Assembly: GCA_942491345.1 (NCBI GenBank) | Contig: CALOAN010000021.1 | Location: forward strand, 261,355-325,354 | Origin: an uncultured actinomycete | Lineage (GTDB): Bacteria; Actinomycetota; Acidimicrobiia; Spongiisociales; UBA5794 | Length of the DNA stretch: 64,000 nucleotides | Direction: 5' to 3' | Part shown: positions 42,824 through 43,062 of the stretch, piece by piece | How the letters are laid out: each line of letters begins with the position of its first letter | How positions within the stretch are numbered: position 1 is the first letter of the stretch | Position numbers and translations under genes: made by a program | The notes under the pieces: generated by a model | The model's input: only the letters and a program-made list of their open reading frames with translations | Told to the model about the DNA's origin: nothing | Database searches by the model: none

Positions 42824-42870
42824 CGTTCCCTCCCTGGGGTTGGTAAAGGTGGCCGGTTGGGGAGGGTCGT

Positions 42871-42907
42871 CCAACAAAACGATCCGCCCCGTCGCCGGTG
42901 CGGATCC
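42871..42907 (-). terminator. Intrinsic terminator/attenuator upstream of metY
   Basis: Minus strand reads GAUCCGC-a-CCG-GCGA-CGG-g-GCGGAUC followed by GUUUUGUUGG (GNRA loop, U-rich tail). Confidence 0.7.
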
Positions 42908-42933
42908 TTCGTTGGTTCAGTTGATGGTCGGTG

Positions 42934-42981
42934 CTACGCGACAGCTCCACACGGCTTCATATGTGCCATGGGCATCATCAT
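42934..42981 (-). CDS. Candidate Met-rich leader peptide (MMMPMAHMKPCGAVA; possibly 22 aa from an in-frame ATG at 43002)
   Basis: ATG ATG ATG CCC ATG GCA CAT ATG AAG CCG TGT GGA GCT GTC GCG TAG read directly from the sequence. 5 of the first 8 codons are AUG. No obvious SD. Confidence 0.6.
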   Translation of the reverse strand: MMMPMAHMKPCGAVA

Positions 42982-43011
42982 GGTGGTGCGTGCAGCGGTC
43001 ATTGCGGAGGG

Positions 43012-43041
43012 AAGGTAGTGCCGGCATCGACCGCGTGTCAA
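43012..43041 (-). promoter_or_regulatory. Possible sigma-70-type promoter of the metY leader
   Basis: TTGACA (43041-43036), 18 nt spacer, TACCTT (43017-43012), about 10 nt before the in-frame ATG at 43002. Confidence 0.35.
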
Positions 43042-43062
43042 GGGTTGTGGGTCTTGTGCGGC

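Follow-up and report, generated by a model that had tools for sequence, protein, structure and literature searches.

A methionine codon-rich short ORF and a putative terminator precede metY-metX

The 64-kb stretch of DNA analyzed here (the window, to which all coordinates refer) carries on its minus strand the genes metY and metX, with the start of metX overlapping the metY stop by 4 nucleotides (nt). Upstream of metY, an alpha/beta-hydrolase-like open reading frame (ORF) ends at position 43063. We read the minus strand of positions 42700-43200, listed its short ORFs, and describe the region between the hydrolase ORF and metY as a candidate transcription attenuator built from a leader ORF and a hairpin. 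The features are collected in Table 1.

The leader begins with a promoter-like pair of hexamers. An earlier note on this DNA had claimed a TTGACA-18-TACCTT pair approximately 10 nt before an ATG; the pair is present, with a spacer of 18 nt and 9 nt between TACCTT and the ATG at 43002. The short ORF reading ATG ATG ATG CCC ATG GCA CAT ATG AAG CCG TGT GGA GCT GTC GCG TAG on the minus strand (42981->42934) and the in-frame ATG at 43002 were both found in the sequence and the ORF listing where the note had placed them. The putative start of the leader ORF is the one at 43002, giving 22 codons and refining the earlier start at 42981. AUG accounts for five of the 21 internal codons, and four of these lie inside five consecutive codons. 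The single Cys codon is codon 18, within the RNA segment that we call segment 2.

The UAG stop codon (42936-42934) is separated by 26 nt from the hairpin, and the metY start lies 110 nt past it. The hairpin is directly followed by the tail GUUUUGUUGG, after which 47 nt remain to metY; the note had expected it approximately 26 nt after the stop and approximately 45 nt before metY, in good agreement with its position at 42907-42881. The hairpin core has a folding energy of -17.1 kcal/mol, which becomes -28.1 kcal/mol with the A/U extension CCAACGAA/UUUUGUUGG.

Table 1. Features of the metY-metX leader region and operon in the window
Feature	Coordinates	Strand	Partner, evidence, or role
-35 box, TTGACA	43036..43041	-	Read in sequence
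-10 box, TACCTT (TANNNT type)	43012..43017	-	Read in sequence
Leader ORF, 22 codons + stop, MTAARTTMMMPMAHMKPCGAVA*	42934..43002	-	Sequence and short-ORF listing
Putative regulatory codon cluster, AUG at codons 8, 9, 10, 12, and 15	42958..42981	-	5 ATG in 8 codons
Segment 1, CAUGGC	42965..42970	-	Partner: GCCGUG of segment 2
Segment 2, GCCGUGUGGA, codons 16-19	42946..42955	-	Partner: segment 1 or segment 3
Segment 3, UCCGCACCGGC, terminator 5' arm	42894..42904	-	Common to antiterminator (2:3) and terminator (3:4)
Putative terminator hairpin core, bulged, G+C, GGAUCCGCaCCG-GCGA-CGGgGCGGAUC	42881..42907	-	Sequence and folding
U-rich tail, GUUUUGUUGG	42871..42880	-	Read in sequence
C-rich anti-Shine-Dalgarno stretch, CCCUCCCC	42859..42866	-	Paired with metY Shine-Dalgarno sequence in minimum-energy fold; presumed role
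metY Shine-Dalgarno sequence, GGGAGGG	42828..42834	-	Sequence and folding
metY (O-acetylhomoserine sulfhydrylase / homocysteine synthase)	41507..42823	-	TIGR01326, 708 bits; ATG at 42823
metX (homoserine O-acetyltransferase)	40452..41510	-	NF001209, 369 bits (cut-off 331); TIGR01392, 396 bits

The leader module is conserved upstream of related metY genes

Relatives of the leader were obtained by a homologous-protein search with MetY and retrieval of the encoding contigs, yielding the DNA around MetY proteins 80-98% identical to that of the window. Thirteen distinct upstream regions could be aligned from the -35 box to metY. The names on its closest MetY proteins assign the window to the Acidimicrobiia, and the relatives appear Acidimicrobiia-like. 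A promoter of the form TTGAC(A/G)-N16-18-TANNNT is present in 13 of 13 regions, with TTGAC invariant; an automated pattern search found TANNNT in 12 of them and missed it in L166, yet TACCTT is visible there. In all 13, the leader starts with ATG or GTG 7-10 nt past the -10 box and lacks a Shine-Dalgarno (SD) sequence. The missing SD, a caveat of the earlier note, is explained by this conserved promoter geometry, and the leader mRNA is probably leaderless or nearly so. Leaderless translation of leader peptides is documented in Actinobacteria and Deinococcus (10.1101/834739; PMC8079986; PMC4007540).

The leader ORF has 22 codons, or 23 in one relative (L177), and the one-codon insertion in L177 is the sole indel within it; the spacers on either side contain many indels of a length not divisible by three. 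Start and stop positions are kept, and the N-terminal third (the first 8 residues) is not conserved as protein. The peptides read MTAARTTMMMPMAHMKPCGAVA in the window, MIAHRFDSMMSMANQEPCGAVA in L164, MIVDRFDSMMRMASQEPCGVVA in L165, MRTVTFTRMMCMAPYEPCGSGV in L168, VSNVTSTRMMCMAKIEPCGFVV in L170, MNVAYTCEMMCMAMITPCSPLA in L171, MKVVPIARMICMACLEPCDIDA in L172, MKVVLRARMMCMALHQPCGSDA in L174, and VNLFTTTGFRMCMAHQEPCGPVA in L177. Each of the 13 leaders has two to five internal Met codons and one to three Cys codons clustered at codons 8/9-12, in some cases extending to codon 15. The cluster varies in its residues (MMMPM, MMSM, MMRM, MMCM, MICM, RMCM), the lineage of the window being the most Met-biased. 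With Met and Cys codons intermixed in the relatives, the family taken together would report on sulfur amino acids.

Downstream of the ORF, all 13 regions have a bulged hairpin (-13 to -21 kcal/mol) that is followed by a U-rich tail (GUUUUCGUUG, UUUUUCUUGG, and similar), and the distance from the leader stop to metY is 108-116 nt throughout. The gene upstream of the module varies, encoding a hydrolase, a GATase, DeoC, glutamate dehydrogenase, MscS, or a divergently transcribed helix-turn-helix protein. Since the upstream neighbors differ, the module belongs to metY-metX. In two nearly identical copies (L161 and L162), the order photolyase-hydrolase-leader-metY-metX occurs twice on one 82-kb contig (ENA contig_6352, 63336-70652 and 54109-61425), approximately 9 kb apart, and one copy adjoins an rve-family transposase gene. 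The doubling reflects a recent duplication or else an assembly artifact.

Composition alone is no proof of function. Five ATG in eight codons occur at only two sites in the six frames of the window; as the pattern is found twice, a single occurrence could be due to chance. The second site (minus strand, approximately 28480-28510, near 28504; RMVMMMAM) was rejected as a leader, being the antisense of the ATC repeats of an Ile-rich plus-strand ORF (28395-29063). What lifts the metY leader beyond chance is the conservation of its Met cluster in the 13 relatives. The enrichment in orthologous leaders that the earlier note had predicted is thus borne out, together with the ORF length and the stop position.

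The invariant alignment columns are the -35 box, the start codon, the AUG codons, CAUGGC, GCCGUG, the stop region, C-GCACCGGC in segment 3, and the 3' arm in segment 4. At the protein level, the conserved residues A13 and P17-C18-G19 coincide with the paired segments. CCG retains its degenerate third base, which is paired; that of codon 13 falls in the loop and is variable. The AUG codons 9-10 lie outside every conserved helix, and the best explanation for their conservation is that they are read as codons.

These columns also bear on the idea that the nascent leader is an arrest peptide that senses methionine or S-adenosylmethionine (SAM) inside the ribosome, rather than a reporter of charged-tRNA supply. 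Such peptides have precedents in TnaC, which senses tryptophan, and plant CGS1, which senses SAM, and the conserved M-x-M-A and P-C-G residues would fit another one. However, every conserved residue is accounted for by RNA pairing or as a regulatory codon, the eight N-terminal residues are not conserved, and the cluster drifts in composition as regulatory codons do. We therefore consider an arrest peptide improbable.

The antiterminator depends on ribosome position in modeled folding

The earlier note had proposed three pairings, between segments 1 and 2 (1:2), segments 2 and 3 (the antiterminator, 2:3), and segments 3 and 4 (the terminator, 3:4). In the 13-sequence alignment, 95% of the cells of the terminator are paired (35-44% in slid controls), 94% of those of the antiterminator (24-53%), and 100% of those of 1:2 (17-54%), showing that the pairing potential is maintained across the family. 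A compensatory change from U-A to C-G was detected in the terminator in five sequences. In the antiterminator, G-C is replaced by A-U in L171, and the same base then forms a U-G pair in the terminator. Segments 1:2 show no compensatory change, and one pair is changed on one side from C-G to U-G.

Folding was modeled on RNA cut before segment 4, a kinetic test that took the place of the thermodynamic switching which we rejected (see below). Without a ribosome, the 1:2 hairpin sequestered segment 2 and left segment 3 unpaired. Placing the A site at the first Met codons gave a duplex of segments 2 and 3 that spans 9-10 nt (-17.4 kcal/mol). No antiterminator formed when the ribosome stood at codon 15 or at the stop, where it covers segment 2. 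The 3:2 pairing comprised only 0-4 nt without a ribosome or with the ribosome at the stop codon. The dependence of the antiterminator on ribosome position holds in 13 of 13 relatives; the mutually exclusive 1:2 / 2:3 / 3:4 logic suggested for the window is thereby reproduced throughout the family.

Proposed mechanism of attenuation and points against it

From the anatomy, the conservation, and the modeled folds, we propose with a probability of approximately 75% that the leader is a ribosome-mediated transcription attenuator of metY-metX, with Met codons as regulatory codons that sense the charging of Met-tRNA. Transcription would start a few nucleotides after TACCTT, and the leader ORF at 43002 would be translated in a leaderless or near-leaderless mode. 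When Met-tRNA(Met) is plentiful, the ribosome would run to the UAG and cover segment 2 (GCCGUGUGGA); the 3:4 terminator could then form, and RNA polymerase would stop near 42871-42880, before metY. If no ribosome is loaded, segment 1 (CAUGGC) would hold segment 2, so that 3:4 forms and transcription likewise terminates. When charged Met-tRNA is scarce, the ribosome would stall on the AUG codons 8-10, covering segment 1 and freeing segment 2, which would pair with the 5' arm of the terminator once that is made and let transcription continue into metY-metX. The Cys codons in the relatives would add a second input. The Met-tRNA-sensing attenuator of the earlier note is supported by the codon cluster, the pairings, and the lack of a riboswitch match (see below), and is refined in that the relatives mix Met with Cys codons.

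Several points weigh against this proposal. In equilibrium folding with a ribosome mask, the extended terminator (-28 kcal/mol) wins at every footprint position, so that any switching has to be kinetic, like that of the trp attenuator. When the window sequence is taken by itself, its best pairing of upstream RNA with the terminator arm (-17.6 kcal/mol) was matched by 209 of 2000 dinucleotide shuffles and is not significant; the support for the antiterminator comes from conservation. The covariation is thin, the paired segments being almost invariant, and is weak as statistics. Near-invariance is, however, expected, since each segment pairs with two partners and also encodes protein. A ribosome stalled at AUG codon 15 or at Cys codon 18 would cover segment 2, so these two codons cannot be antiterminating.

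Other points concern the expression signals. The U-tract is broken by a G, and a simple consensus scan for promoters and terminators returned no sites at the leader; the likeliest reasons for this miss are the bulged stem and the non-TATAAT -10 box (TACCTT), although the scanner itself reported none. The 9 nt from the -10 box to the AUG are long for a strictly leaderless start. Finally, methionine starvation would also lower the level of formylmethionyl-tRNA (fMet-tRNA), fewer ribosomes would load, and the default is termination. Consecutive elongator AUG codons would make elongation the more sensitive step.

For each of the 13 relatives, the metY SD itself is predicted to form a helix with an upstream C-rich stretch; the sequences involved differ, and the mean unpaired probability is 0.25-0.47. 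When the antiterminator was forced in the window sequence, segment 4 (GGGG) took the anti-SD (CCCC) as its partner, and the strong helix at the SD disappeared. Coupled translational control via the metY SD is thus conceivable as a speculative second layer. The same observations would suit a device in which the short ORF (sORF) acts mainly on translation, with a helix cascade that masks and unmasks the metY SD and a hairpin that is structural, not a terminator; the mycobacterial leader Ms5788A works purely at the translational level (10.1101/834739). However, a U-rich tail after the hairpin is conserved in every relative, the partner of the sORF is the hairpin arm and not the SD region, and the pairing of segment 4 with the anti-SD (4:5) was seen in one sequence only. 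We regard such a device as unlikely in place of transcription attenuation, and the two modes could coexist.

The leader matches no known RNA family

The check for a SAM riboswitch or a T-box was performed with Rfam 15. No matches were obtained at the gathering score in the whole window, and a search of 42700-43200 with E-values up to 10 gave three chance-level matches, with no SAM family and no T-box among them. The leaders of nine relatives also gave no family matches. In other metY loci the same covariance search finds SAM-I riboswitches at 60-81 bits, which makes the negative result informative.

This search addresses the possibility that the ORF is incidental to an RNA that acts as a metabolite riboswitch of unrecognized type or binds tRNA in the manner of a T-box. 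Methionine genes are usually under the control of SAM riboswitches or T-boxes, and metY carries SAM-IV in Mycobacterium avium (PMC3774663) and SAM-I elsewhere. We detected SAM-I upstream of metY or its operon in 12 of 20 loci without a short upstream ORF, one of them from Acidimicrobiia. The occurrence of SAM-I and SAM-IV at other metY loci indicates that the sORF module stands where a sensor for the methionine pathway is expected. However, besides the lack of an Rfam match in the window and the nine relatives, there is only approximately 100 nt from the putative transcription start to the terminator, of which 69 are an essentially indel-free ORF of conserved length, and no conserved structured core is apparent beyond three short, mutually exclusive helices. 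A riboswitch or T-box-like RNA is accordingly very improbable here.

Met/Cys-rich sORFs recur upstream of metY in other lineages

A broad survey covered 80 genome and 71 metagenome metY loci among the matches listed, mostly encoding distant MetY proteins (63-82% identity). As a criterion, at least five Met plus Cys codons in eight consecutive stop-free codons within 500 nt upstream of metY were used. Among these matches, such runs were found in 31 of the 80 genome loci and 23 of the 71 metagenome loci. On the antisense strand there were none (0/80 and 0/71), and shuffled sequences contained 1 in 1600. The loci with Met/Cys sORFs span Bacteroidota, Ignavibacteria, Balneolaceae, Gammaproteobacteria, Eisenbacteria, and Acidimicrobiia.

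The codon composition differs between these groups. The runs in Bacteroidota are mostly poly-Cys (MCCCCCFC), and mixed runs (MCLCCMMMC, MCMCMC, MCMTMAMCMC) occur in Ignavibacteria, Balneolaceae, some Gammaproteobacteria, and an Eisenbacteria metagenome-assembled genome. Met-only leader candidates are few; an example is L133 (approximately 1768-1860; MKIRIENITSIMIMATMGMMMRMFMRMSR), with 10 Met in 29 codons. In this locus, a run of eight T directly follows the stop codon, approximately 140 nt upstream of metY. An nhmmer search of the window and of 160 distant loci with a profile of the window family gave no additional copy, save for a weak similarity in L040. The distant Met/Cys sORFs show no clear similarity to the window family and possibly represent a widespread, convergent class.

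At some loci, both kinds of leader are present. In L016 (approximately 2075-2500) and L056 (approximately 2073-2500), an sORF with its own terminator is followed by a complete SAM-I riboswitch and a second terminator. A Met/Cys sORF together with SAM-I is present in L024, L035, and L044 too, and SAM-I scores in the tandem loci are 60-78 bits. In L015 (Acidimicrobiia), the SAM-I aptamer precedes the sORF. In Flavobacterium psychrophilum, RNA-seq revealed Rfp20 (321293-321392), a short independent transcript upstream of metY-metX that was left as an unresolved cis-regulatory candidate (PMC9723704). Its sequence contains an ORF beginning MKITICNICRMA; Rfp20 may be an experimentally observed leader of this type from Bacteroidota.

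This recurrence bears on another account, in which the translated ORF and the terminator only report general translation capacity or act as a constitutive damper, and the Met codons are a structural by-product or belong to a peptide that is itself functional. Pairing of AUGAUG with CAUAUG is indeed possible in the minimum-energy fold of the window, and the single-sequence antiterminator is not significant. That pairing is not conserved, though: the relatives have AACCAA, AGCCAA, or CCAUAU there. Moreover, unrelated Met/Cys sORFs precede metY repeatedly across several phyla and are absent from the antisense strand, and the module is always found with metY-metX, where other lineages have a SAM riboswitch. 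The chance that the leader merely reports translation in general appears slim compared with a role of its Met codons in attenuation.

Comparison with known leaders

The classical leaders of Escherichia coli and Salmonella are trpL, hisL, leuL, thrL, ilvL, and pheL. Classical attenuators also include the actinobacterial trp, ilvB, and leu leaders (PMC1262725) and the Mycobacterium tuberculosis ilvB1 upstream ORF (PMC13236596). Like these, the metY leader comprises a short ORF rich in codons for the pathway product and a putative intrinsic terminator before the first structural gene; its folding predicts that ribosome position chooses a mutually exclusive antiterminator and that no translation means termination. 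In contrast to them, the window leader has AUG, decoded by elongator tRNA-Met, as its presumed regulatory codon and is likely leaderless, and the relatives mix Met with Cys codons.

The polycysteine leader Ms5788A of mycobacteria (10.1101/834739) is similar in being an actinobacterial sORF that lies before sulfur-assimilation genes and senses a sulfur amino acid through its codons, as is proposed for the window leader; Ms5788A is leaderless, as the window leader probably is. It has consecutive Cys codons, whereas the window leader has five internal Met codons and one Cys codon. Furthermore, Ms5788A has no terminator, and its sORF pairs with the SD region and controls translation, whereas in the window the 3' end of the sORF pairs with the terminator arm and the SD pairs with a separate C-rich stretch. 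The window contains a leader of the polycysteine type as well (5716-5793, minus strand; 6 Cys in 25 codons, ending in CCC), between a sulP-family permease gene (5917-7659) and cysK (4695-5645; TIGR01139, 448 bits), which is followed by cysE (3946-4698; TIGR01172, 239 bits). The parallel Cys leader pointed out in the earlier note is thus real and matches a known actinobacterial leader type.

In Streptomyces lividans, a leaderless sORF named metL (...CMCRRMCAF) upstream of metNIQ has been proposed as a methionine attenuator (PMC8079986). It resembles the window leader in its Met and Cys codons and in its position before a methionine-related operon in an actinobacterium. It differs in that the operon encodes a transporter, the sORF has 29 codons with three internal Met, and there is no recognizable terminator. 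The metL proposal came without comparative or functional support, and the leader has no sequence similarity to the window family.

SAM riboswitches on metY share with the leader the gene, the position, and an output by premature termination (predicted here) and would be functional equivalents. They differ in sensing SAM directly by an aptamer, without an ORF, and in some phyla both devices stand in tandem. The T-box of Staphylococcus aureus metICFE-mdh (PMC3771891) also couples methionyl-tRNA charging to the transcription of methionine biosynthesis genes, as is proposed here. In that T-box, however, a structured RNA of approximately 200 nt binds the uncharged initiator tRNA directly, without translation.

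Novelty and implications

Leader peptide attenuation is textbook knowledge for Trp, His, Leu, Thr, Ile/Val, and Phe, and the control of methionine genes is ascribed to SAM riboswitches, T-boxes, or proteins. In the literature searched, which left most subscription journals outside its coverage so that an earlier description is possible, we found neither a leader-peptide attenuator for metY or methionine biosynthesis nor a characterized attenuator with AUG as regulatory codons. Within that coverage, the claim that Met-tRNA leader attenuation had not been characterized holds. The attenuation mechanism is classical; its amino acid specificity would be new.

We tentatively suggest, at just short of an even chance, that leader attenuators of metY with Met and/or Cys codons, which would sense sulfur amino acids, form a widespread, undescribed class to which the window family would belong. 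Its members appear to be spread over Acidimicrobiia, Bacteroidota, Ignavibacteria, Balneolaceae, Gammaproteobacteria, and other groups, in some cases arranged in tandem with SAM-I. For practical use, such leaders would offer an annotation signature for methionine and sulfur regulons in uncultured Actinomycetota and Bacteroidota and, if the proposal is true, a compact methionine-responsive part for synthetic biology. Attenuation would gain a new amino acid specificity, and the long-noted gap of the missing methionine attenuator would be filled. If the class is real, Met-tRNA charging would be readable by stalling at elongator AUG codons despite the need for methionine in initiation, raising the question of how a device that depends on fMet-tRNA reports a shortage of Met-tRNA. 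The metY gene would then be open to control by SAM sensing, by sensing of tRNA charging, or by the two in series, and would provide a natural system for comparing the two.

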